Positions 5,418-61,690 of a stretch of 64,000 bases of DNA are shown here, piece after piece. Position 1 is the stretch's first letter, and each line of letters opens with the position of its first letter. A program made the position numbers and the translations under genes. Below the pieces are notes generated by a model. That model worked only from the letters and a program-made list of their open reading frames with translations, searched no databases and was not told where the DNA came from. Source of the DNA: Clostridia bacterium (lineage in GTDB: Bacteria > Bacillota > Clostridia > Christensenellales > CAG-917); contig JAFZMH010000007.1 in the NCBI GenBank assembly GCA_017553325.1, forward strand, positions 32,751 through 96,750, written 5' to 3'.

Positions 5418-6393
5418 TTTCTGTTTCCTCCTGTTTATTAGGGTATAGCGGATGTTTTGTTTCATATCCGCACTTTGAACAATGATACTTCATCTCGTAA
5501 TAAACAAAATCGTGTGGTTCTTCAAAATATGATCCACATACATTGCACGTTCCAATGTGTGTAATTGGATTGATTGTGTATGTATTAGCATAATGCTGAC
5601 CATATATCGTTTGACTGCATACGCTACACGTATGCCAATGATACGTATTGCTGGATGAGTATGCTCCAAAAGTATGATTGTTTGTTATAAGACTTCTTCC
5701 GCAATAATAACAACCATATGTATGCGTATAGTCATTATATGAAATCAAGCACGTTGAAGTATGATTTGAATTGTGCCTATAAACACAAACGAAATCTCCT
5801 GGATAACTCAGCAGTTTATCTCCAATAGCAGGGGTATAAAAAGGATGATGTACTAAGTCTGATTCAACTATTTGTCCTTTTCCCCATTTGGATTTTATTC
5901 GAACAGACGTTGTTGTGCTACCTGTCTGAACAACCATTGCCGAATGCTTGATTTCATTGTCAAATATATATGTTGTGTCACTATATTTATATAAAATAAT
6001 ATCTCCAACTTGCAAATTACTTGCGATAGTATCAGTTAGGTATTCATCACTGTAAATGATGCTATAACAAGTATTTGACGGATTCCCCACATATGGGGTA
6101 GGATCGTTGATATTGAACTGAGTCTCAGCTATATACGCATATAAATCGCCTTGATAGTACCACGCAAAAGTATGGCAATTGAACGTATCGGTAGCAATAT
6201 CAACCAAAAGTGTTGCACCCGTATAGTTGCTTATATTATAGCTATATCCATCGGTCCCAGTGCCGTATTCGATTTCTATTTGAATTCCAGCAGGAGTATA
6301 AATATAATAACTGGAAGATGATGTTACAGCCATCTGTGACCCATATAGAATTGTTGCAGGTATTATAAGACTAAGTAACAGTTTTTGAATCAT
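5401..6393 (-). CDS. Secreted protein: putative papain-fold Cys/His amidase-like N-domain plus four H-C-x2-C-H zinc-knuckle-like repeats
   Basis: 330 aa with an N-terminal hydrophobic signal. Candidate Cys (FNCHTFAW) and His (IKHSAMVV) dyad. C-terminus has HTYGCYYCGRSLITNNH, HTCSVCSQTIYGQH, HIGTCNVCGSYFEEPH, HCSKCGYETKH. Very AT-rich coding sequence and no strong SD. The stop overlaps the downstream SBP start by 17 nt. Confidence 0.6.
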   Translation of the reverse strand: MIQKLLLSLIIPATILYGSQMAVTSSSSYYIYTPAGIQIEIEYGTGTDGYSYNISNYTGATLLVDIATDTFNCHTFAWYYQGDLYAYIAETQFNINDPTPYVGNPSNTCYSIIYSDEYLTDTIASNLQVGDIILYKYSDTTYIFDNEIKHSAMVVQTGSTTTSVRIKSKWGKGQIVESDLVHHPFYTPAIGDKLLSYPGDFVCVYRHNSNHTSTCLISYNDYTHTYGCYYCGRSLITNNHTFGAYSSSNTYHWHTCSVCSQTIYGQHYANTYTINPITHIGTCNVCGSYFEEPHDFVYYEMKYHCSKCGYETKHPLYPNKQEETENEKIA

Positions 6394-6591
6394 AGTTTCA
6401 CATCACAAATGCTATTTTGATTTTTCAGTAAATTATCTTTACTCCCTAATCCATATAATAGTTGCATTTTATATGGAAAAAAGTGACAACTATTTGGAAT
6501 TTTTTGCTTTACAACAATAATTATGCGGTAAAAACCACAAATAGTCAATCACTTTATTCGGGTAAAGTAGTCGTTAAATTGATTTTATAGA

Positions 6592-8097
6592 TTATTTTCC
6601 TCTAAACATAAACCCTTCCTTTTGATAGACCTTGAGTTGAAGGTTGAGTTGCTCGATGAACTCTTTGTTTGAGGAGGTGCGAACAAGCATATTGAGAATA
6701 TTCTCGGTGGCGTCTGCGTTGTCCGTGTTGGAAAGGAGTTTGCGGATGCCCCACATACCCTCGAGTTCGCTTGCGGAGAGCAAGAGTTCTTCCTTTCTCG
6801 TGCCGCTCTTGGCAAGATCGATTGCCGGGAATATGCGTTTTTCGCTCAGACGTCTGTCTAGGTGAATTTCCATATTCCCCGTGCCCTTGAATTCCTCGAA
6901 TATAACGTCGTCCATACGACTGCCGGTATCTATGAGCGCGGTTGCTATTATCGTGAGCGAACCACCGCCCTCGATATTTCTCGCAGAACCGAAGAAGCGT
7001 TTAGGGCTGTGAAGCGCGCCGGGGTCTATACCGCCCGACAACGTTCTGCCCGTCGGCGGAATCGTCAGGTTGTAGGCGCGCGCAAGTCTTGTCAAGCTGT
7101 CGAGCAAGATGACGACGTCTTTGCCGTTTTCGACGAGACGCTTGGCTCTTTCAAGCAACATTTCAGCCGTCTTGGTGTGATGCTCGGGGAGTTCGTCAAA
7201 GGTGGAATATATCACTTCGCCCTTTATCGAGCGTTGCATATCCGTCACTTCCTCGGGACGCTCGTCGATAAGCAGAACTTTGAGTTCGATTTCCGGATAG
7301 TTTTTGGATATTGCGTTTGCAATCATTTTGAGAAGCGTCGTCTTGCCTGCCTTCGGCGGAGAGACGATGATGCCTCTTTGTCCCTTGCCTATCGGAGATA
7401 CGAGGTCGATACAGCGCGTGGCGTACTCTCTCGGGTTGCTTGCGAGTTCGAGGCGTATACGTTCGTCGGGGTAAATCGGCACGAGGTCGTCAAAGTTGGG
7501 ACGCTTGCCGACTTTCGCCACGTCAACGCCGTTTATCGTGAGCACGCTGACGACTGCGGACGGTCTTCCCTCTTGCAATATTTTGCAGGACGCTTTGACG
7601 TAGTCTCCGCGACGCAAATCGTATTGCTTGATTTTTGCGGAAGCGACGTAGGCGTCCATCTCGTTGAATTCGCCGTTTTTTACTCTCAAAAAGCCGTAGC
7701 CGTCCGGATGCATTTCAAGATATCCTTCTCTAACCTGTTCGACGTCCGAGCCCGCAGGCGATTCCGAAACCTTCTTCAATGCGGGAAAATTCTCCTTGTC
7801 CTCGAAATCGGTCTTTACGTTGTCGACGCGATGAAACTTGATTTGAGGACGGTTGTCCTCGTTTTTAGACCTGTTGCCGACTTTACTTGCGGGTTCCGTT
7901 GCCACAAGTTCCTTTTTCGGTCTTCCGCGACGCGGAGCGACGGGCGGGTCCATCTTGCCGTTGCTGATCTTGTAAATCAATTCGATAAGTTCCGCTTTGT
8001 TCATTTTGGTTGGAGCGGGAACGCCGACTTCCTTGCCTATTGCGCGAATTTCAAAGATACTCTTTGAATTCAGTTCGTCCATAGAATAACTTGCCAT
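6592..8097 (-). CDS. rho: Transcription termination factor Rho (with N-terminal insertion domain)
   Basis: 501 aa. Rho N-terminal helix bundle ([21 protein letters not shown]), CSD-like [11 protein letters not shown], Walker [11 protein letters not shown], RecA-type core. About 85 extra residues lie between the helix bundle and the CSD. RBS AGGAG. Confidence 0.95.
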
Positions 8098-10225: not shown

Positions 10226-11365
10226 TTATTTGAGTTGCATCACGTCGACCAAAACCGAGTTCATGATCGCAAAGCCTTCGTCCGTCAAACGCACTTTGTC
10301 ACCCTCAATCAAAAAATATCTTTGATATTTTTCAAGCGCGGAGATCGGCAGGAGTTTTTTCTCTATACCGTATGCCGTTCTGAGCCCGAGCATAATTCTT
10401 TCATCCACAATCGCATCATCGTCGAGTTTTTCAACGTTTTCACGCGGAATATCGAAATAATCTTCCGCACCGTTTACGTTTTCAACGTATTTTTCAATCG
10501 AATTTGCGGAAGAATAGCGCACTTCGGCATCGTACGGAGTTTGACCTGACATCTTCAAAAACGTAGACGCGCCCGCGCCGAAACCGAGATACTCCTCTCT
10601 CGTCCAATAGCCGAGATTGTGGCGAGAAATCTTGCCGTCTCTTGCGAAATTGGACACTTCGTACCGAGAAAACCCGTTTTCTCGCAAGGTTTTGACCGCT
10701 GCGTCCATGAGGTCCGCGACTTCGTCGTCGGCAGGAAGAGTGATCTTGCCCTCTTCGACAAGTAAGTCGAGCGGAGTCCCCTCCTCCAAAATAAGCTGAT
10801 AGACGGAGAGATGGTCGACGGCTTCGGCAATTTTTTCGACTTCCTCGCAAACGCGCGCTTTCGTATCATACGGCAAGCCTATCATAAGGTCGCAGGAAAT
10901 ATTGTCGAAATATTTTTTTGCGAGCGCGACAGCATTTTGTGCGGTTTTTGCGTCGTGAATTCTGCCTATCGCTTTCAAATTGTCGTCGAAAAGACTTTGA
11001 ACGCCAATGCTCAACCTGTTTATGCCTGCGCGCTTATAAATCGCAAGTTTCTCTTCCGTCAAACTCTCGGGGTTCGCCTCAATGGTTATCTCCGCGTCGT
11101 CATCAACCGTAAAACTGTTTTTTACGTTTTCAATCAAGGCTTCAATGCAGTTTGCGGGGAGCAAACTCGGAGTCCCGCCCCCGATAAAAACCGACGTGAT
11201 TTTTTTGTTTTTTTCAAGCTTTAAAAACGAGTCGGAAGCAAGTGCAATTTCACGATTTAGTGCGGTTAGATAGCCGAAAATCAACCCGTCGGCGTTTACA
11301 TACGAGTTGAAATCGCAGTATAGACATTTCCTTTTGCAAAATGGAATATGAACGTAAATTTCCAT
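10226..11365 (-). CDS. hemW: Radical SAM heme chaperone HemW (HemN-like)
   Basis: 379 aa. IPFCKRKCLYCDF radical-SAM CxxxCxxC motif. Sits immediately downstream of lepA, as is usual in Firmicutes. Confidence 0.85.
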   Translation of the reverse strand: MEIYVHIPFCKRKCLYCDFNSYVNADGLIFGYLTALNREIALASDSFLKLEKNKKITSVFIGGGTPSLLPANCIEALIENVKNSFTVDDDAEITIEANPESLTEEKLAIYKRAGINRLSIGVQSLFDDNLKAIGRIHDAKTAQNAVALAKKYFDNISCDLMIGLPYDTKARVCEEVEKIAEAVDHLSVYQLILEEGTPLDLLVEEGKITLPADDEVADLMDAAVKTLRENGFSRYEVSNFARDGKISRHNLGYWTREEYLGFGAGASTFLKMSGQTPYDAEVRYSSANSIEKYVENVNGAEDYFDIPRENVEKLDDDAIVDERIMLGLRTAYGIEKKLLPISALEKYQRYFLIEGDKVRLTDEGFAIMNSVLVDVMQLK

Positions 11366-11369
11366 AAAA

Positions 11370-13196
11370 TCAGTTGTTCGTCGGGTCGACTTTGAGAATG
11401 GAGATAAACGCCTCGCTCGGCACCTCTACGTTGCCGACTTTGCGCATACGTTTCTTGCCCTCTTTCTGCTTTTCGAGGAGTTTCTTTTTTCGAGTAATGT
11501 CGCCGCCGTAGCACTTTGCGAGCACGTCCTTTCTAAGCGCTTTTACCGTCTCTCTTGCGATAATCTTGCCGCCCACGGTTGCCTGAATCGGTATTTCGAA
11601 GAGTTGACGCGGAATTGCGTCTTTGAGTTTTTCCGCAATACCTCTGCCCCTCGCGTAGGCGTTGTCCTTGTGCACGATGATCGAGAGCGCGTCGCACATA
11701 TCGCCGTTTATCATCATATCGAGGCGCACGAGGTCGCTCTTTTCAAAACCGTCCATCTCGTAGTCGAGAGAGGCATAGCCTCTCGTTCTCGATTTAAGAC
11801 TGTCGAAAAAGTCGTAAATTATCTCGTTCAAGGGCATTCTGTAGGTGATTTGAACGCGAGTCGGGTCGATATAGGACATATCGACGAATATTCCGCGTTT
11901 GCCTTGACAGAGCTCCATAATCGCGCCGACGTATTCCGGCGGAGTGAAAATGAGCGCTTTGACGATAGGCTCTTCTATACTCGAAATCTCGCTCGGGTTC
12001 GGGAGCGCAGTCGGGTTGTCGATTTCTATCTTCTCCCCGTTCGTCTTTGTCACGATATACGAGACGCTGGGCGCGGTGGTGATAAGGTCGAGGTCGAACT
12101 CTCTCTCAAGTCGCTCCTCGATAATCTCCATGTGCAGGAGCCCCAAAAAGCCGCAACGGAAACCAAAGCCGAGCGCGGTTGAAACCTCCGGCTCAAAACT
12201 CAGCGAGGCGTCGTTGAGTTGGAGTTTTAAAAGCGCTTCTTTGAGGTCTTCGTATCTTGCTCCGTCCGCGGGGAAAACGCCGGTATACACCATAGGAGTT
12301 GCCTTTTTGTAGCCGGGGAGCGCCTCTTTTGCGGGGTTTAAAGCAAGAGTTATCGTGTCGCCGACCGCCGTATCGCTCACGTTCTTTATGCTGGCGGCGA
12401 TATATCCGACTTCGCCTGCCGTAAGCTCCTTCCCCGCGCGCATATTCGGCGAGAAATAACCGACTTCGACGACCTCAAAAGTCTTGCCCGTGGACATCAT
12501 TTTGATTTGGTCGCCCGCTTTTACTCTACCGTCGACAAGGCGTACCATTGAGATTGCGCCTCTGTAATTGTCGTAAAAACTGTCGAAAATGAGGGCTTTC
12601 AGCGGCGCGTCCTCGTCTCCCGACGGCGCTGGAAGTTTGTCTATGATTTGACCGAGCAAATCGTCGATTCCTATGCCTTCCTTTGCGGAAACGAGAGGAC
12701 AACCTTCGGTGTCAAGTCCTATTATGTCCTCAATCTCGAGTTTGACAGCGTCAACGTCCGCAGAAGCAAGGTCTATCTTGTTTATGACGGGAAGTATTTC
12801 CAAGTTGTTTTCAAGCGCGAGATAGACGTTTGAGAGGGTTTGAGCCTCCACGCCCTGCGTCGCGTCTACTACGAGCAGCGCGCCCTCGCAAGCGGCAAGA
12901 GAACGCGAGACTTCGTACGTAAAATCGACGTGCCCCGGCGTATCTATAAGATTGAGCACGTATTCTTCTCCCTTATACTTGTAGTATAATCTGCAAGTTT
13001 GGAGTTTTATCGTGATGCCGCGCTCCTTTTCTATATCCATATTGTCGAGCAACTGTTCGCTCATATCGCGCTCGGAAACGGTCCCCGTCTTTTCGATGAG
13101 TCTGTCCGCAAGCGTCGATTTGCCGTGGTCAATGTGCGCGATTATGGAAAAATTTCTTATATGCTTCTTGCTCACTGTCTTCCTTTCCGTCCCCAT
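11370..13196 (-). CDS. lepA: Translation elongation factor 4 (LepA)
   Basis: [22 protein letters not shown]1 motif, [13 protein letters not shown], LepA C-terminal domain. The track ORF begins at a TTG (13217); I prefer ATG 13196 (MGTERK...), but the start is uncertain. Confidence 0.9.
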
Positions 13197-13304
13197 TATT
13201 AAAATAATAATGGACAAACGTAAAATATTTTTTGAAAACTATTGACAACATTATACAAAGAATTTAAAATTTTATCAACAATATTAATGATAAAGGGTGA
13301 AAAA

Positions 13305-22428: not shown

Positions 22429-22776
22429 TCAGTCCTCCAAAACGCGCTTTATTTGCGCTATTGCCTCCAAAACCTCTTGGCTCTGCCCTTCCGTTTCCAA
22501 AGACTTCAGCGCCTGCAAAATGCTTGCGTCCTTTGCGATGAGCCCGAGTTTTGCATCGTACTCGCGAAGTGATTTCTCCCCCTTTGCCAAACTGTCCGCA
22601 ACCGCCTGACGGGACACGTCGTAAATCTCGGCTATCTCGGCAAGAGACAGGTCCTCGTCATAGTGCATTTTGAGCATATCGTTCTGCTTCTTCGTGAGAA
22701 GCGCGCCGTAATAGCTCCTGAGAGTGGCAATTTCAAAGAATTTCACTTTATACCTCAAAAAATAAGTGGCAAGCAT
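22429..22776 (-). CDS. ylxM: YlxM family (UPF0122) putative DNA-binding protein
   Basis: 115 aa. YYGALLTKKQNDMLKMHYDEDLSLAEIAEIYDVSRQAV sigma-r4-like HTH. Conserved position upstream of ffh. RBS AAGGTGG. Confidence 0.88.
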   Translation of the reverse strand: MLATYFLRYKVKFFEIATLRSYYGALLTKKQNDMLKMHYDEDLSLAEIAEIYDVSRQAVADSLAKGEKSLREYDAKLGLIAKDASILQALKSLETEGQSQEVLEAIAQIKRVLED

Positions 22777-22785
22777 TTTTGCTTA
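22770..22785. repeat. 16-nt direct repeat caagcatttttgctta, copy 1 (overlaps the ylxM start codon)
   Basis: Identical to 22818-22833. Contains the inverted arms AAGCA/TGCTT. Confidence 0.9.
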
Positions 22786-22792
22786 CCACCTT

Positions 22793-22820
22793 ATTATACA
22801 TATTAAAACTTTGCTGTCAA
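22793..22820 (-). promoter_or_regulatory. Promoter-like element (TTGACA-16-TATAAT) upstream of ylxM-ffh
   Basis: On the minus strand, TTGACA is at 22820-22815 (inside repeat copy 2) and TATAAT at 22798-22793. The predicted start is about 22786, which would remove the ylxM SD. Confidence 0.55.
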
Positions 22821-22833
22821 GCATTTTTGCTTA
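22818..22833. repeat. 16-nt direct repeat caagcatttttgctta, copy 2 (overlaps the -35)
   Basis: Identical to 22770-22785, offset 48 bp. Confidence 0.9.
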
Positions 22834-22912
22834 ACATTCACAATATTTATTAAATATTTAAGATATTTTAAAATTCAACTCTACCGGATTAAACTTAATT
22901 AATTATTTGGGT

Positions 22913-22973
22913 GCGATTGTTTGTATGAGTTTCGAGGCAGAATGCTCTAACAAAGAAAACCGCCAAACAGCGC
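22913..22973 (+). repeat. AYGAG-core structured intergenic element, copy A (short form)
   Basis: Closing helix tgtttg (22918-23) / caaaca (22964-69), extended by gcg/cgc. Core ATGAG-TTTC-GAGGCAG-[gca gaa tgc hairpin]-CTCTAACAAA-GAAA-ACCGC. Ends 3 nt before the ftsY stop codon (22976-78). Confidence 0.75.
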
Positions 22974-22975
22974 GC

Positions 22976-23869
22976 TCAAAGCAATGCGTTAATGAAATCC
23001 GTCGCGTCAAACGGAATTAAATCATCAATTTTCTCGCCAACACCTACGTATACGACGGGAAGCCCAATCTCGTCGCTGATTGCAAGCACGACGCCGCCCT
23101 TTGCGGTTCCGTCGAGTTTTGTGAGGATAATGCCGTCCGTTTCAATGTCTTCCGAGAAGATTTGCGCCTGCGACACCGCGTTTTGTCCCGTCGTGGCGTC
23201 GAGCACGAGATACTTCCTGAAATCTGCCTCGGGCAATTCTCTGTCCACGACGCGACAAATCTTTTGAAGTTCCGCCATAAGGTTCTTCTTGTTGTGAAGT
23301 CTGCCTGCGGTGTCCACCAAAATCACGTCGTTTCCTCTCGCCTTTGCGCTGGATATTGCGTCGAATACGACAGCCGCGGGGTCCGCGCCCTCGTTGTGGC
23401 GTATAACTCTGACGCCCGCTCGCTCGCCCCAAACTTCAAGCTGTTCGCTTGCAGCCGCTCTAAACGTGTCCGCGGCAGCCACGACGACGCTCTTGCCCTG
23501 CTCTTTGAACATGTGTGCAAGTTTGCCGACAGCCGTAGTCTTGCCCACGCCGTTGACGCCGGACAGGAGTATAACGAGCGGATATTCGTATTCCGGCACG
23601 TCGTAGTCGATGTCCTCAATCATGATTTTGCGGAGCAATTCTTTTGCGTCTTCCGGCTTTTTTATCTTCTCCTTGAAGGCTCTGTCTTTGAGTTCCTCGA
23701 TGAGGTTTTCAGTCGCCGTAAGCCCGACGTCCGCCGTCAAAAGTGCTTCCTCTAAACTCTCGTAAAACTCGTCGTCAAGTTCGCGAGCGGAAAATGCAAA
23801 GAACAACTTTTTTGAAAAAGCGTCCTTCGTCTTTTTTATACCTTCTGCAATTTTTTTGAAAAAACCCAT
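22976..23869 (-). CDS. ftsY: Signal recognition particle receptor FtsY
   Basis: 297 aa. GVNGVGKTT, DTAGR, TKLDG SRP-GTPase motifs. Confidence 0.96.
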   Translation of the reverse strand: MGFFKKIAEGIKKTKDAFSKKLFFAFSARELDDEFYESLEEALLTADVGLTATENLIEELKDRAFKEKIKKPEDAKELLRKIMIEDIDYDVPEYEYPLVILLSGVNGVGKTTAVGKLAHMFKEQGKSVVVAAADTFRAAASEQLEVWGERAGVRVIRHNEGADPAAVVFDAISSAKARGNDVILVDTAGRLHNKKNLMAELQKICRVVDRELPEADFRKYLVLDATTGQNAVSQAQIFSEDIETDGIILTKLDGTAKGGVVLAISDEIGLPVVYVGVGEKIDDLIPFDATDFINALL

Positions 23870-28731: not shown

Positions 28732-28805
28732 GCGAGCGTAGTTTAGTGGCAAAATAAAAGCTTCCCAAGCTTTGGTTGTGGGTTCGATTCCCATCGCTCG
28801 CTCCA
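28732..28805 (+). tRNA. tRNA-Gly (anticodon CCC)
   Basis: Cloverleaf by hand: acceptor GCGAGCG/CGCTCGC, D arm GTTT-AGTGGCA-AAAT, anticodon stem AAAGC/GCTTT with loop TTCCCAA, T arm GTGGG-TTCGATT-CCCAT, encoded CCA. Confidence 0.9.
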
Positions 28806-31942: not shown

Positions 31943-32208
31943 GCTGTGCTAGACGGGGAGCTTGCGGTGCCCTGTAAACTACAATCCGCAATAGTAGTGT
32001 CGAACGCCAATCGAGGCTTTTGTTATGGTTGGTTGCGCATAGCAAGGAGTGATGATAGCAAGGTCCCGTGCAATGTCATACTGCGAACCGTGTCAGAGCT
32101 TGACCGCAGCAGCACTAAACAGGCGTTGGCGTGTGCCACGGGGAAACTTTGAAGGAGCCGCCTACTATGTTTCCACTTCGGTTTCAAACGTCGGAGTTGG
32201 TGCACAGT
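31943..32208 (+). ncRNA. ffs: Signal recognition particle RNA, large Bacillus-type (scRNA with Alu domain)
   Basis: The 5' GTGCTAGACGGGGAGCTTGCGGTGCCCTGTAAACTACAATCCGC matches the B. subtilis scRNA Alu-domain start (GUGCUAGACGGGGAGGUAGCGGUGCCCUGUACCUGCAAUCCGC). The S-domain block is GAACCGTGTCAGAGCTTGACCGCAGCAGCAC, then GTGCCACGGGG. The 3' GGTGCACAG pairs with the 5' CTGTGC. Confidence 0.85.
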
Positions 32209-42369: not shown

Positions 42370-42440
42370 GCTAAATGAATTATACTATTTAACAACAAAT
42401 GAGCGCGATATTTGGATGAAGAGCGCAAATAATAATGTTT

Positions 42441-42563
42441 AAAACCGCTCGGGAGTGATGAGATGCTAGGAAGGACGCTTTGTTTGAAAAGAGCGTACTT
42501 TTGCGTACGTGATTGCACTAAAAAAGCGACCTAACAACGCAGGTCGCTCTCTCGTGCGGTTTT
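42441..42563 (+). repeat. AYGAG-core structured intergenic element, copy E (long form)
   Basis: Closing helix aaaaccgc-t-cgggag (42441-55) / ctctcg-t-gcggtttt (42549-63). Core ATGAG-ATGC-TAGGAAG. Outer helix ggacgcttt/aaagcgacc. Apical hairpin gcgtac-ttttgc-gtacgt. 3' core CTAACAAC-GCAG-GTCGC. The 3' arm overlaps the stop codon (42562-64) of the reductase gene. Confidence 0.8.
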
Positions 42564-44670
42564 ATTTAATCTTGTGGATGGCAACGTCATACGCCGCTCT
42601 AGTAGCATCCGCAATACGCCCTATCTTGCTTGCGTCGCCCACGACGAAGAGTCTTTCAAACTTGCCATCAAACTCTTTTGCGAGATTGTTGACGGGACGT
42701 GCGCCAAGCGACAGCACCACTGCGTCGAAATCATAGTGCTCGGGTGCGCCTGTGGACACCGGCTTTCTGTTCTTGTCAAGTTTGACGGGTTCAAGCACTA
42801 CGCCTGTCTCATCAATCGAGTTGAGTTTGTGAGAAAGAATATATTCCGTCCCCTTCGCGTTGAGTTTGGGGAGAACGTCGTCGAGGTGCTGGAACCAAGT
42901 GCCGGGGGCGACTCTGTCCGCCATTTCGACGATTGTCACCTTGTTGCCGTATTCGACGAGCATTTCGGCGGTTTCAAGTCCCGTCATACCCGAGCCGATA
43001 AGAGCGACGTTTTTGTTTTCGAGATACTTTTCACCGCTCAAAATCTGCGTCGTCGTGTAGACGTTTTCGCGGTTGACGCCCTCGATTGAACGCGGACGCA
43101 CTGCGCACGCGCCGGTTGCAATGATGACTGCGTACGGGTTGAGCGCTTGTACGGTTTCAAGGTCCGCCTTTACGCCGAGACGAATTTCCGCGCCGACTTT
43201 TTCCGCATTGGTCTTCATATCGACGAAGCACCAGCCGAGTTTCTCCTTCTTTGGCGGTTTGTTGGCGAGTTGAATTTGTCCGCCGACTTCCTTTGCCTGT
43301 TCGAGAACGATAGGTTTGAACCCGCGTCTACCAAGCATTTCCGCCGCCGTGAGACCCGCAACGCCTGCGCCTACGACGACGACAGTTCTGCCCTCGCCGT
43401 CCTTGACGAGATTGTCAAATTCTCTTTCGCGCCCGACAGTCGGGTTGACGGAGCAATAGCCGTGGTCGCCGTGATAGGCGTTGTCCTGCATGGATTGTAT
43501 GCAGTAGAGACAGCAGATGCAACGCTTGATTTCGTCCTCTCTGCCCTCTTGCGCCTTTTCCGCCCAGTGCGGGTCAGCGATGTGCGGACGCCCGAGCGAC
43601 ACGAAGTCTTGTACGCCCTCTTCAAGTTGTTTTTCCGCTTGTTCGGGAGTTCTTATGAGGTTAGCGGCTATGACCGGAATGTTCACTTCCTTCTTGACCG
43701 CCGCCGCGAGATACTTTCTCCAGCCGCATTCAAAACTCGTTGGCTCTAGCCAATAGTTGAACGTGTCGTAGCTTGCGGACGAGACGTCAATTGCGTCCAC
43801 GCCCATATCGGCGATTGCCTTCGCATATTTGACGCCCTCTTCCATCGTGTAGCCTTTGCCGAGTTTGCCTATCTTCTCGTAGAATTCGTCAATGGTGAGA
43901 CGGACGACGATTGGATAATCTCCGCATTCCTTTCTTATGCCCTCGATGATTTCGCGCACGAACCGCAAGCGGTTTTCAAAACTTCCGCCGTATTCGTCAT
44001 TTCTGTGGTTTGTATTCGGGCTCAAAAATTGTTGGATGAGGTAGCCGTGCGTGCCGTGGAGTTCAACGCCGTCCACGCCTGCTTTTTTGCAGCGCACCGC
44101 ACCGTCTATATACTGTTGAATGAGTTGTTTGACTTCCTTGTGAGAGAGCGCTCTGACCGCGGTGTTCGCATAATATGCGGGTTCGCAAGCGGAGGCGGAG
44201 ACAGCCTTCTTGGAAATGTGATGCTTCTCAAGGAATGGCGCGAGTTTCGGAGCCATACTGAACAGCATCTTCGGGAACTTCTTGCAAATTCTCGTGCACG
44301 CGATGCAGAGAGGCACGGTGCCGATTGCAAGACCGACGTTTTGACGGCCCGGGTGATGCAGTTGCACGAAGAGTTTTGCGCCGTGTCTGTGAATACGATT
44401 TGCAAATTCCGTTAGTCCCGGTATTTGATAATCGTGGCTCACGCCGAGTTGCGCAAACGCCGCCGCGCCCGTCTTGTCGTTGATACGGGTAATCTCGGTC
44501 ATGATGAGTCCCGTTCCGCCCTTCGCGCGCTCCTCATAGTAGTCCATGAGTTGCTCGGTTGTGCATCCGTCGAATTGTCCGAAGCCCATGAGCATCGGGG
44601 ACATAACTATACGGTTTTTGATCTCGCAGTTGCCTATTTTCATAGGACTGAACAACATTTTGTATTCCAT
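42562..44670 (-). CDS. OYE-type FMN domain fused to FAD/NAD(P) oxidoreductase (2-enoate reductase / 2,4-dienoyl-CoA reductase family)
   Basis: Start trimmed to ATG 44670 (MEYKMLFSPMKIGN). LHHPGRQ, Fe-S motif CICCLYC...C, Rossmann VVVVGAGVAGLTAAE and ALIGSGMTGLE. Confidence 0.8.
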   Translation of the reverse strand: MEYKMLFSPMKIGNCEIKNRIVMSPMLMGFGQFDGCTTEQLMDYYEERAKGGTGLIMTEITRINDKTGAAAFAQLGVSHDYQIPGLTEFANRIHRHGAKLFVQLHHPGRQNVGLAIGTVPLCIACTRICKKFPKMLFSMAPKLAPFLEKHHISKKAVSASACEPAYYANTAVRALSHKEVKQLIQQYIDGAVRCKKAGVDGVELHGTHGYLIQQFLSPNTNHRNDEYGGSFENRLRFVREIIEGIRKECGDYPIVVRLTIDEFYEKIGKLGKGYTMEEGVKYAKAIADMGVDAIDVSSASYDTFNYWLEPTSFECGWRKYLAAAVKKEVNIPVIAANLIRTPEQAEKQLEEGVQDFVSLGRPHIADPHWAEKAQEGREDEIKRCICCLYCIQSMQDNAYHGDHGYCSVNPTVGREREFDNLVKDGEGRTVVVVGAGVAGLTAAEMLGRRGFKPIVLEQAKEVGGQIQLANKPPKKEKLGWCFVDMKTNAEKVGAEIRLGVKADLETVQALNPYAVIIATGACAVRPRSIEGVNRENVYTTTQILSGEKYLENKNVALIGSGMTGLETAEMLVEYGNKVTIVEMADRVAPGTWFQHLDDVLPKLNAKGTEYILSHKLNSIDETGVVLEPVKLDKNRKPVSTGAPEHYDFDAVVLSLGARPVNNLAKEFDGKFERLFVVGDASKIGRIADATRAAYDVAIHKIK

Positions 44671-44756
44671 AATTCTCCCCAAATTATTTTTTTAATACGT
44701 AAATATTTTAGCACTTTGAAATAGATATTTCAAGAGGGGTATAGCATTTTTTGTAA

Positions 44757-44803: not shown

Positions 44804-44918
44804 CGTTTGATTTGGACGAGATGAGAGAAAGCGTGCTTTTTGCGAAAGCTAAGTGTACAAAGGCGTACGCGGTGCTTGAGAACAAAGTGCGCTGACAAAG
44901 CAGTCGCTAAATCAAGCG
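44804..44918 (+). repeat. AYGAG-core structured intergenic element, copy D (long form)
   Basis: 12-bp closing helix cgtttgatttgg (44804-15) / ctaaatcaagcg (44907-18, two G-T pairs). Core ACGAG-ATGA-GAGAAAG. Outer helix agcgtgcttt/aaagtgcgct. Apical hairpin gtgtac-aaaggc-gtacgc. 3' core CTGACAAA-GCAG-TCGC. The 3' arm is the folD stop codon plus its last three codons. Confidence 0.8.
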
Positions 44919-45764
44919 ATTTTGGATTTTATAAGCCTTAACCGTGTTTTGAAGGAGCATAGTCACCGTCATAGGACCTACGCCACCCGGGACGGGGGTT
45001 ATATAACTGCACTTTGGCGCGACGTTTTCAAAATCAACGTCTCCGCAGAGTTTGCCGTTTTCGTCTCTGTCCATGCCGACGTCCACGACGACTGCGCCCT
45101 CTTTGACCATATCGGCTTTGAGGAATTTCGCCTTGCCGATTGCCACGCAAACTATGTCAGCCTGACGGGTGATTTCGCCGAGGTTTTTCGTGCGACTGTG
45201 GCAAATCGTCACCGTTGCGTTTTTGTCGAGAAGAAGTTGAGCAAGAGGTTTGCCGACGAGGTTGGAGCGTCCCACCACGACAGCGTTTTTGCCTTCAAGT
45301 TCGATATTGTAGTGCTCAAGTATGCGCATAATGCCAAACGGCGTGCAAGCGATTAGGCACTCGCGTCCCGTCCAAAGTCTGCCCTTTTGCACGTAGTGGC
45401 AACCGTCGACGTCCTTTGCGGGGTCGATGAGGTCGAGAAGCGGGTTTTCGTCGAGATGCTTAGGGAGCGGAAGTTGCAAGATTATGCCGGAAACCTCAGG
45501 GTTCTCGTTTAAAGACTTTATCGTCTCAGCGACTTGCTCTGCCGTGCTGTCTCCCGGGAGCGTGCACATAAACGACTTGACGCCGACTTCTTCGCATCCT
45601 TTCATTTTGTTGCGCACGTACACGAGCGACGCGGGGTTGTCGCCGACGAGAATAACCGCAAGCCCTACGGGCTTGTCAAGGTTCATAGCCTTGATTTCAT
45701 CGACTTCTGCTTTGATATTTTGTCTCGTCACGCTTGCAACGAGTTTTCCGTCTAGAATTGTCAT
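44907..45764 (-). CDS. folD: Bifunctional methylenetetrahydrofolate dehydrogenase/cyclohydrolase
   Basis: 285 aa. ILVGDNPAS.VYV, GIILQLPLP, VVVGRSNLVGKP, PVPGGVGPMT motifs. Confidence 0.95.
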   Translation of the reverse strand: MTILDGKLVASVTRQNIKAEVDEIKAMNLDKPVGLAVILVGDNPASLVYVRNKMKGCEEVGVKSFMCTLPGDSTAEQVAETIKSLNENPEVSGIILQLPLPKHLDENPLLDLIDPAKDVDGCHYVQKGRLWTGRECLIACTPFGIMRILEHYNIELEGKNAVVVGRSNLVGKPLAQLLLDKNATVTICHSRTKNLGEITRQADIVCVAIGKAKFLKADMVKEGAVVVDVGMDRDENGKLCGDVDFENVAPKCSYITPVPGGVGPMTVTMLLQNTVKAYKIQNRLI

Positions 45765-50767: not shown

Positions 50768-50801
50768 TTCTGTCTCCTAATGTTGTTTTCTAAAATCCTG
50801 A

Positions 50802-50907
50802 TTATTTGTATGAGTTGCAAGGAACCGTGCTTTTGACCGCAATGAGCGTACTAAGCCGTACGTGATTTGTGGGCAAAAGTGCGTTGACACAGCAAATCGC
50901 CAAATAA
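50802..50907 (+). repeat. AYGAG-core structured intergenic element, copy C (long form)
   Basis: Closing helix ttatttg (50802-08) / caaataa (50901-07). Core ATGAG-TTGC-AAGGAAC. Outer helix cgtgcttttg (50826-35) / caaaagtgcg (50874-83) with tandem G-T pairs. Apical hairpin gcgtac-taagcc-gtacgt. 3' core TTGACACA-GCAA-ATCGC. Lies between the pta stop (50917) and the ackA RBS. Confidence 0.8.
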
Positions 50908-50916
50908 AATAGCACG

Positions 50917-55701: not shown

Positions 55702-55773
55702 CTGCTTGATTGAGATGAGTTTCGAGGAAGGTGCGCACGCAAACCTGACAAGGAAAACCGCTCAATCAAACTG
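55702..55773 (+). repeat. AYGAG-core structured intergenic element, copy B (short form)
   Basis: 9-bp closing helix ttgattgag (55706-14) / ctcaatcaa (55761-69). Core ATGAG-TTTC-GAGGAAG-[aggt...acct hairpin]-CTGACAAG-GAAA-ACCGC. The 3' arm contains the methyltransferase stop codon (55766-68). Confidence 0.78.
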
Positions 55774-56629
55774 TTTTGAACGTAGCAAAGGCAGTGCAAC
55801 CCTGCGGAAGAATCAGTCCTTCTTCAGTCTGTAAACCGATTTCGTCCGCGTCAATAACCGCGTTATTCGGCAAGGCGAGTTTCAATATGTTTGCCATAAC
55901 CGTAGGTTGCAGTCCCGTCGTATAACTGTTGAGGCACACGAACAGCGGATTGTCGCCAAGAAGCGATGATACAAGATTCATAAGTTCGCTTATTCCCTCT
56001 TCGATCTTCCACTTTTCACCGTTTGGACCTCTGCCGAAGGAGGGCGGGTCGAGGATTATCGCGTCGTAGTGTTTGCCACGTCTGATTTCTCTTTGGCAGA
56101 ATTTGAAGCAGTCGTCGACGATATATCTCATCTCTCTGTCTTCAAGTCCCGACAACCTGACGTTTTCGCCCGCGCGCTCGACCATCGCCTTCGCGCTGTC
56201 AACGTGGCACACGCTCGCACCCGCTTTAAGGCAGGCGACGGACGCCGCGCCCGTATAGCCGAACAGGTTGAGGACGCTGATTTTACGCCCCGCGGTTTCA
56301 ATGAGTTTCATCATTCTGTCCCAGTTGACAGCCTGCTCGGGGAAAAGTCCCGTATGTTTGAACCCCATGAGTTTGAGGGAGAACGTAAGGTCGCGCCAGC
56401 CGAGTTTAAACTCCGTATTGATGGGTTTTTGCCATTTCCACGCGCCACCGCCGGAAGAGCTGCGTTCGTACACCGCCGAGATGTTTTTGTTGCTTCTCAG
56501 CGGAGTTTTTGCGTGCCAAATTACCTGCGGGTCGGGACGCAGTAAAACGAGATCTCCCCATCTCTCGAGTTTTTCGCCGTCGCCGGTTGCGATGACGGAG
56601 TATTCTTTCCAATCGGGTGCGATTTTCAT
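55766..56629 (-). CDS. Class I SAM-dependent (rRNA large-subunit RlmI/RlmK-like) methyltransferase
   Basis: 287 aa. LNLFGYTGAASVA SAM-binding motif and ILDPPSFGRG. Confidence 0.75.
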   Translation of the reverse strand: MKIAPDWKEYSVIATGDGEKLERWGDLVLLRPDPQVIWHAKTPLRSNKNISAVYERSSSGGGAWKWQKPINTEFKLGWRDLTFSLKLMGFKHTGLFPEQAVNWDRMMKLIETAGRKISVLNLFGYTGAASVACLKAGASVCHVDSAKAMVERAGENVRLSGLEDREMRYIVDDCFKFCQREIRRGKHYDAIILDPPSFGRGPNGEKWKIEEGISELMNLVSSLLGDNPLFVCLNSYTTGLQPTVMANILKLALPNNAVIDADEIGLQTEEGLILPQGCTAFATFKTV

Positions 56630-61613: not shown

Positions 61614-61690
61614 GGAGGCATGGCTCAGTTGGTTAGAGCACACGGTTCACATCCGTGAGGTCGTTGGTTCGAGTCCAACTGTCTCCACCA
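61614..61690 (+). tRNA. tRNA-Val (anticodon CAC)
   Basis: Cloverleaf by hand: acceptor GGAGGCA/TGTCTCC, D arm GCTC...GAGC, anticodon stem CACGG/CCGTG with loop TTCACAT, T arm GTTGG-TTCGAGT-CCAAC, encoded CCA. Confidence 0.88.

Follow-up and report, generated by a model that had tools for sequence, protein, structure and literature searches.

MITEs normally conserve their termini and not their interior. REP sequences are abundant extragenic hairpins, which can sit 15 nt or less from stop codons, and REPINs are hairpins of about 100 nt that are mobilised as single-stranded DNA by RAYT transposases; according to Liang et al. (2015), E. coli REP hairpins located less than 15 nt from a stop codon reportedly disturb termination. 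The attC sites start at the stop codon of the preceding ORF or overlap it, it is the strand opposite to the ORF that folds, and the length of the tip varies, giving short and long sites; integrons are not known from Clostridia. For repeats of the ERIC/Correia kind, De Gregorio et al. (2005) are said to have described size variants, with long forms and internally deleted short ones, as well as orientation-dependent effects on mRNA. ERIC/IRU and Correia (NEMIS) are bacterial MITEs, imperfect palindromes of about 105-157 bp with terminal inverted repeats (PMC3184786); the REP superfamilies are treated in PMC3733652; IS200/IS605 elements insert downstream of a motif that is paired with their left end, and they have gene-less derivatives, the PATEs (PMC10055086).

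The 61-nt element that follows ftsY in the window (the whole stretch of DNA analysed, 64,000 nt) is an internally deleted copy of a hairpin-forming interspersed repeat, and is designated here copy A. With a probability of roughly 60%, it is what decay and an internal deletion have left of a non-autonomous mobile repeat, similar in kind to MITEs, ERIC or REPINs.

The element downstream of ftsY

Copy A occupies window positions 22913-22973 (+), and a sequence check found its 61 letters identical to those quoted in the original prediction. It contains ATGAGTTTCGAGG at 22925-22937 and GAAAACCGC at 22955-22963 (+); a covariance model derived from long forms of other genomes only recognises it with a score of 38.3 bits (E=3e-9), over a match span of 22913-22975 (+). 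The + strand of region 22906-22980 folds with -23.6 kcal/mol (z=-2.3). Its parts are the following:

22906..22924 (+): 5' arm of the closing helix P1, distal to ftsY; pairs with 22964-22980 and is homologous to the L128 5' arm ATTATAATGCGATATTTGG
22925..22937 (+): 5' conserved block ATGAGTTTCGAGG, located by the pattern and the covariance alignment
22938..22948 (+): stump CAGAATGCTCT of the variable arm P3, left by a 54-nt internal deletion; pairwise alignment with L128:11020-11136(-)
22949..22963 (+): 3' conserved block AACAAAGAAAACCGC, located by the pattern and the covariance model
22964..22980 (+): 3' arm of P1, overlapping the ftsY stop codon (22976-22978) and the last sense codon
22976..23869 (-): ftsY, assigned by Pfam SRP54_N/SRP54 and by the smc-ftsY-ylxM-ffh synteny; its stop codon lies within the closing helix

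The closing arms had been described as complementary, and they do pair, but the extent of the helix had been understated: in the fold, 22906-22924 pairs with 22964-22980, and the helix spans the ftsY stop codon, to which copy A had rightly been said to be adjacent. The end of the element had been placed 3 nt before this codon, whereas the actual gap from 22973 is 2 nt. The 5' block ATGAGTTTCGAGG includes a bulged A, a U.G wobble, a G-C and an A-U pair, a G.A mismatch and the UUUC half of helix P2; the pattern RACRNNGMAAAYCGC of the 3' block fits every pattern-selected long form. The ftsY stop reads TCA on the + strand (22976-22978) and, on the gene strand, the 3' arm of P1 reads TGA-GCGCGCTGTTTG, the same tip being found in the L131 copies after IMPDH and OYE.

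The ylxM-ffh operon of the window (22764-22836, -) has a perfect sigma-70-type promoter, TTGACA-16-TATAAT (22820-22793), around which the palindrome AAGCAAAAATGCTT occurs twice: one copy overlaps the -35 hexamer, and the second forms a terminator-like hairpin with a T run (22791-22764) directly before the ylxM start. This layout is kept in the relatives L127-L129, and the pair may represent an operator pair or a leader attenuator. Some relatives have unrelated palindromic repeats at these same places behind stop codons: in L125, a hairpin GGGGGATTCCTCGGCTACGC...GCGTAGTCGAGAAATCCCC follows ftsY (11100-11200), and in L133 inverted runs of GGAATTAGG heptamer-like repeats follow the oxidoreductase gene (13100-13230).

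A family of imperfect hairpins

The proposal that copy A is a member of a repeated and structured family was supported; the covariance model matches five copies in the window. The search started from a pattern of the two exact core blocks separated by a variable gap, which gave three matches in the window, all on the + strand, and none in 100 shuffles. This pattern holds about 20 bases' worth of specified sequence and, when scanned against one genome per species, it matched at least 117 DNA stretches, most of which look like chance, as pre-estimated. Among the matches listed, about 35 have complementary flanks and a gap of 88-93 nt, with record titles naming uncultured Clostridiales RUG767, Christensenella UBA1260 and WY2.bin34 (a deltaproteobacterial MAG by record title); further titles in this group of about 35 are Saccharibacteria, Paceibacteria, Coxiellaceae, Oceanobacter, Nitrosomonas, Alistipes and others. 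The phylum assignments rest on these record titles, the loci outside the window being all metagenomic, and the gene calls in the pattern-scan loci are longest-ORF heuristics.

The model alignment comprised 31 flank-complementary matches and window copy C, for which RNAalifold returned a single long imperfect hairpin with double changes at 17/26 pairs. In the covariance scan of the window the five copies, all on the + strand, have E-values from 7e-19 to 3e-9, and the next match stands at E=0.3; the fetched loci contain many more copies, as many as four in 8 kb, for a total of about 70 in the window and these loci together. Besides copy A, the window contains:

42446..42559 (+): long copy at the stop codon of the flavin oxidoreductase gene (CM 49 bits); the TAA ends 14 nt from the core
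42562-44682 (-): flavin oxidoreductase gene (Pfam)
42400..42426 (+): remnant of another, truncated copy, consisting of the arm TGAGCGCGATATTTGG and ATGAAGAGC, in the upstream flank of the 42446 copy; unscored by the model
44804..44919 (+): long copy fused to the end of folD (covariance model); the folD stop TAG spans the junction between closing arm and core
44907-45764 (-): folD, the gene upstream of the 44804 copy
50798..50912 (+): long copy C, between pta and ackA (CM 71 bits)
55703..55773 (+): short copy B (CM 49.8 bits)
55766-56629 (-): methyltransferase ORF, the gene upstream of copy B, ending inside its closing arm

The intact element is one imperfect hairpin of roughly 130-150 nt. The closing helix P1, of about 18 bp, constitutes the terminal inverted repeats, the tips of which are TAA or TGA; inward of P1 the core comprises the bulged A, the U.G, G-C and A-U pairs, a purine-purine mismatch and the 4-bp helix P2, followed by an internal loop (AAGG opposite RACRNN), the variable P3, tandem G.A and a conserved apical hairpin, GCGUAC-loop-GUACGUGA. 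The U14.G112 wobble is present in 56/60 copies. In the 60 model-aligned copies, standard pairs occupy 93% of the cells, compared to 68% in shuffles and 30-43% when the partners are slid by 1-3 columns, percentages that are somewhat inflated by the fitting of this alignment to the model; double changes at 19/26 modelled pairs show covariation throughout the family that supports the closing helix.

Helix P2 covaries between UUUC/GAAA and UUGC/GCAA, with CCGC/GCGG in a WY2.bin34 variant. In the window, the variant core pair ATGAGTTGCAAGG ... GCAAATCGC is found in copy C (50810-50900), and the change from TTTC/GAAA to TTGC/GCAA between window copies is compensatory. Since copies were discovered starting from the exact core pattern, the search itself accounts for part of the invariance that the core blocks show among pattern-selected copies; model-derived copies carry covarying core variants, such as AUGAAAUGC/GCAGUUCGC and ACGAGCCGC/GCGGAUCGC.

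No Rfam 15 family was found at the element in the gathering scan of the window, and permissive E-value scans of copy A, copy C and the extra-long form gave only chance matches (E of at least 0.8). The gathering matches in the window, unrelated to the element, are located at 779-945, 28732-28802, 31944-32207 and 61614-61687, and correspond to a lysine riboswitch, two tRNAs and the large bacterial SRP RNA. The element had no blastn match in plasmids and phages, and the pattern scan of viral contigs gave 0 matches; a literature search with the core sequence returned unrelated primers only, and keyword searches yielded MITE reviews, but no account of this family. A small ORF starting from the ATG of the 5' block was discarded, as the conserved blocks lie in different frames in A and B; hammerhead, twister and K-turn, compared by eye, do not fit, and the Rfam scans gave no match to them either.

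Short and extra-long forms

Copy A had been proposed to lack a long insertion, and its alignment to an L128 long copy agrees with this: compared to L128 copy 2, at the same ftsY site, it matches at 20/21 nt, lacks 54 internal nt and then matches at 19/20 nt. Copy B aligns to the GCGCACGC subtype (L036, L066, L097), with a gap of 37-42 nt beside a repeated GCACGC motif, and it is an independent deletion of another long subtype. The two conserved blocks are identical in A and B, as originally noted (55715-55727 and 55753-55761 in copy B), and the minimal core is close to the 40 nt proposed (39 nt in A, 47 nt in B); an even smaller core, of 31 nt, was found in L074 (191-245).

The comparison of A with B had also been presented as the cleanest evidence that the helix is selected, a point that is not supported. 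The closing arms of A and B are inherited from two long subtypes, because the arms of these subtypes are common to several loci and species, and deletion of the tip leaves the arms of a hairpin complementary without any selection. One change in copy A is of a different nature: in its inner closing pair, TATTTG/CAAATA of the other ftsY-site copies has become TGTTTG/CAAACA, with both sides changed (A-T to G-C), and this double-sided change favours maintained pairing. The short forms do not behave as a subfamily, as had been suggested, but are sporadic, with two in the window, two in L074 and no credible match in JGI metagenomes. Two short copies beyond A and B, in WY2.bin34, have each their own different truncation. 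Scanning JGI metagenomes for short forms with an exact core gave one chance-like match, which lacks complementary flanks; as long forms were uncounted there, the scan is hardly informative on abundance. Thus, the short forms are sporadic tip deletions, and the complementarity of their arms is inherited; altogether, the original prediction is partly supported, as its family, its structure and the link to the ftsY stop codon stand, and its selection argument and subfamily idea do not.

At the other extreme, an extra-long form of about 190-210 nt is found in L047 (1869-2060) and L075 (1633-1840). An 85-nt insertion, located in the internal loop between P2 and P3, adds two or three extra hairpins, and the resulting fold is multi-branched (-88 kcal/mol, z=-4.9).

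Filled and empty sites and other signs of mobility

Relatives with 92-96% identical FtsY or FolD differ in the occupancy of the same sites:

after ftsY: empty in L127 and L129; filled in L128 (two long copies) and in the window (copy A)
pta-ackA: empty in L127 (TAA-GGAG, 10-nt spacer); filled in L128 and in the window (149-159 nt)
IMPDH-folD: empty in the window and L133 (13 nt); filled in L131 and L132

The pta-ackA spacer has 149 nt in the window versus 10-15 nt in the relatives L120-L123 and L127, and in L129 only a remnant is kept, the distal flank, as expected from a deletion between AAATAA repeats. More distant relatives (88-93% identical FtsY) have no copy in the about 100 kb examined. 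Tandem, head-to-head, nested and truncated copies are all present in the family. After ftsY, L128 has a tandem pair of long copies differing in core subtype (10894-11136); the second is without a matching 3' arm and shares with the first a duplicated 40-nt junction, and copy A combines the gene-proximal arm of one L128 copy with the core of the other.

Some copies alter coding sequences. In L058, from a Saccharibacteria MAG, a copy (6178-6289) lies in frame within the ORF of an RluA-type pseudouridine synthase (5799-6851), where it represents an insertion of roughly 55 residues compared to the RluA homologue of the window. At window 44907-44925, the element seems to recode the last FolD residues; the C-terminal tails of FolD vary among close relatives (P0121-P0140), with RLI, HLI, SLI, NL or GLK after a shared AYKxQN.

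In one WY2.bin34 subfamily (L005, L015, L065, L079, L083, L099) the 17-nt arm, CAGCCYGTYGAAAAASG, is present a third time, about 25 nt upstream of the rod, where it serves as a left inverted repeat. Of the six copies, three are flanked by exact 4-nt direct repeats (TTAC, TTAG and TTAA) and two more by near-exact ones; the duplications correspond to TTAN on the element strand, that is NTAA on the gene strand. No target-site duplication is recognisable in the copies of the window's clade and of Clostridia, and no second upstream left inverted repeat of the WY2.bin34 style was found in the Clostridia copies. The fetched loci (about 2-21 kb) contain neither the WY2.bin34 inverted-repeat motif outside element copies nor a split copy able to flank a transposase gene, and the precomputed Pfam lists for the loci of 13 relatives (most about 20 kb) contain no transposase. 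In a Coxiellaceae MAG (L051, 4959-5203), two near-identical copies lie in direct tandem, and 108 nt separate them from the end of a transposase gene of the IS6 family (DDE_Tnp_IS240), a proximity that may be coincidental. Three different proteobacterial MAGs (L026, L069, L110) share the same copy in the nrdA-nrdB spacer, with apparently paired changes on both P3 arms as judged by eye only, which suggests that it has long stayed at this site and hints at a retained function.

Folded strand and transcription

The + strand is more stable than its complement in 49/56 long copies (mean -46.0 vs -37.6 kcal/mol), and it carries the wobble G52.U75 in 25/60 copies; at the base of the apical stem, the 60 copies have 25 G.U, 12 G-C and 11 A-U. 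Outside two conserved positions, no excess of G.U over A.C is present on the + strand (25 G.U vs 28 A.C), and the closing helix alone is stronger on this strand in only 17/28 copies. From these calculated folds, the + strand would probably be the relevant folded strand.

No credible + strand promoter was found upstream of the window copies (near A there are 9/12 matches only, and none for the other four), and therefore the transcript at the resident sites is most likely the complement. The distance from copy C to ackA is only about 30 nt. An outward promoter composed of core TTGCAA and the distal arm was considered and rejected, as it fits only some copies, such as those of L128. Beyond the folD copy, the gene strand has a canonical terminator (44782-44761, 22 nt downstream) and then a promoter (44733-44705); since it sits between the stop codon and this terminator, the copy would be transcribed together with folD.

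These features bear on whether the element might be a non-mobile host hairpin, serving as a transcription terminator or as a stabiliser of the 3'-UTR. Copies are located where genes end, the outer arms of many closing helices (AAAAC...GUUUU) are reminiscent of bidirectional terminators, and the relative L120 has an ordinary terminator after ftsY, where copy A is found in the window. However, copies occur inside the read-through operons pta-ackA and IMPDH-folD, the terminator that follows the folD copy is separate from it, copy A has no U tract on either strand, nor did the scan reveal an intrinsic terminator (GC-rich hairpin plus U tract) there, and termination does not need a conserved core of about 40 nt; a host terminator or stabiliser is thus very improbable.

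Position and orientation relative to genes

The genes flanking the element are unrelated, ordinary housekeeping genes: smc-ftsY-ylxM-ffh, pta-ackA, IMPDH-folD-flavin oxidoreductase and RluA-methyltransferase-IleRS in the window, and nrdA-nrdB, rpsG-gap, gap-pgk, der and mutB in other loci. In the window's clade, 18 copies were compared (5 from the window, 3 from L128, 5 from L131, 3 from L132 and 2 from L133); relative to the upstream gene, all 18 are on the other strand, and its stop codon is the starting point of 17, the remaining one being the second unit of a tandem pair. The end of the stop codon is 11-16 nt from the core in 12/17, and in the other five it lies deeper, in the closing arm or the core. 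The tip of the closing arm is TAA/TGA on the gene strand, and its partner at the far tip is TTA/TCA. In the RUG767 and UBA1260 loci, 12/24 copies are antisense at a stop codon, and 4-5 are in sense, 11-14 nt before a start codon.

Random insertion does not account for such a strict position at the stop codon combined with a strict orientation. Copying of the closing arms from the host flank was excluded, as the same arm types are present at unrelated loci and in different species, and so was an antisense bias due to stops in three frames, as one frame usually remains free of stops across the element. The anchoring and the orientation could be caused by an asymmetric target that includes TAA/TGA; the WY2.bin34 duplications read NTAA on the gene strand.

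Fixed position and orientation without duplication would follow from insertion of single-stranded DNA by base pairing. The repeat might be mobilised in this way, like IS200/IS605-derived PATEs, REPINs or attC sites, with an HUH or tyrosine enzyme that recognises the hairpin and inserts the folded strand beside a TAA/TGA read by base pairing. The uniform orientation and stop-codon position in the window's clade, where duplications are not visible, are in line with this mechanism, as are the pairing of the stop triplet with TCA/TTA at the far tip, the better folding of the + strand with its conserved wobbles, and the precedent offered by the motif-guided insertion of IS200/IS605 and by the gene-less PATEs (PMC10055086). 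The 4-nt direct repeats of WY2.bin34, however, suggest a staggered double-strand cut, L088 contains copies in opposite orientations within 300 nt, G.U and A.C are equally frequent apart from the two conserved wobbles, the examined loci revealed no Y1 transposase, and the end boxes of attC are absent; on balance, mobilisation as single-stranded DNA is considered unlikely.

A further candidate cause of the anchoring and orientation would be selection that keeps the more stable, or active, strand out of operon transcripts; the E. coli REP hairpins near stop codons are a precedent. In another reading, the element would be an independent structured non-coding RNA, with the + strand acting as an antisense or small RNA, or as a self-cleaving or protein-binding module, and with operons tolerating it only where their transcript carries the inactive complement. 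The conserved bulged A, U.G wobble and G.A mismatch, the tandem G.A by the apical stem and the basal G.U are in favour of an RNA, as are the added internal-loop hairpins of the extra-long form, which resemble modular RNAs, the conservation of the core across phyla, and the minority of copies in sense, which are directly upstream of a ribosome-binding site. Such a role is nevertheless improbable, given the polymorphic sites with unrelated neighbours, the copy translated in frame, the window copies without a credible + strand promoter and the lack of an Rfam family at E<0.8.

On a more speculative level, the conserved rod could be a functional single-stranded nucleic-acid module for a putative, widely distributed machinery, which appears unlikely. 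The rod would be defined by its bulged A, U.G wobble and purine-purine mismatch, along with the internal loop and the GUAC hairpin at the apex; it may belong to a new hairpin-guided insertion system homing to stop codons or, alternatively, to a new structured-RNA class, tolerated by operons in its inactive orientation alone.

The preferred reading, a non-autonomous mobile repeat, would involve mobilisation in trans by an enzyme encoded elsewhere. Close relatives have gained and lost copies, and these land exactly where a gene has its stop codon, antisense to that gene, with the tip of the inverted repeat coinciding with the stop. At the ftsY site, the element would be transcribed along with smc-ftsY, giving the reverse-complement hairpin after the ftsY stop and before the ylxM-ffh promoter, and its effect would be neutral or, at most, that of a modest modifier of the 3'-end or of the termination context; the short form would have arisen by deletion of the hairpin tip during replication. 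Several observations count against a mobile repeat: core blocks of 13 and 9 nt, a near-invariant U.G wobble and a mismatch, all of which a MITE would not usually have; the lack of a transposase or other partner in the loci covered; the lack of a recognisable target-site duplication in the window's clade; the shared nrdA-nrdB copy; and the strict position and orientation.

Significance and comparison with known systems

As a decaying insertion in the ftsY-ylxM spacer, copy A has very little import there, and an annotation as regulator of the SRP operon is unwarranted. The interest lies in the family, the core of which is common to distant phyla and of which the literature search found no description. 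The element alters the final codons or the stop codon of housekeeping genes such as folD, IMPDH and a methyltransferase gene, and remodels the spacers of operons, pta-ackA among them; it also readily yields false positives when structured RNAs are screened for, and could mark recent genome change in uncultured gut or rumen Clostridia.

Two traits of MITEs are present. Terminal inverted repeats, with arms of 17-20 nt, reach the tips of the element (e.g., TGAGCGCGCTATTTGG...CCAAATATCACGCTCA), and copies are small (61 to about 230 bp), non-coding and dispersed, with 5 copies in 64 kb here and up to 5 in 21 kb in L131. In common with ERIC and Correia, the element is an imperfect palindrome of about 100-160 bp with terminal inverted repeats, it has long forms and internally deleted short forms, and it occupies transcribed spacers at the 3' ends of genes, with co-transcription of the hairpin (PMC3184786). 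Unlike them, it conserves an interior core and not the termini, and it is strictly anchored to the stop codon; its core is common to several phyla, in contrast to ERIC and Correia, each of which occurs in one narrow group only. ERIC/Correia have no sequence similarity to the element, and their TA duplication has no demonstrable counterpart in the window's clade.

REP and REPIN sequences are likewise abundant extragenic hairpins near stop codons; however, REP units are of 20-40 nt, lineage-specific and marked by a GTAG or CGTC tag, whereas the element is a single rod of about 130-150 nt without tag, with tips reading TAA/TGA and one hairpin as its unit. With attC sites it shares the start at the upstream stop codon, the folding of the opposite strand and the occurrence of short and long tips. 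The attC boxes RYYYAAC/GTTRRRY are absent, the tips CTAAAAC / GTTTTAG or TGAGCGC / GCGCTCA failing at the Y and R positions, and attC sites form cassette arrays beside an integrase, whereas the element is dispersed after ftsY, pta, folD, IMPDH, nrdA and rpsG.

PATEs resemble the element in having no genes, a hairpin, no duplication (in the window's clade) and a short adjoining motif (PMC10055086), which in the element is the fixed TAA/TGA position. They differ in having separate hairpins at the left and right ends and no terminal inverted repeat, in place of a single hairpin with inverted-repeat ends; the Rfam IS605-orfB models do not match the element, and one WY2.bin34 subfamily has 4-nt duplications, unlike PATEs. 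Rickettsia palindromic elements offer a parallel to the copy in the L058 RluA-like gene, as they too are palindromes able to sit in frame within an ORF and be translated, but in-frame copies are exceptional in this family (1 of about 70), which extends beyond one genus, unlike the Rickettsia elements.

ERIC/Correia, REPINs, attC sites and PATEs each share traits with the element, which carries no defining sequence feature of any of them; it would represent a new family of interspersed palindromic repeats with an unusual, widely conserved interior.
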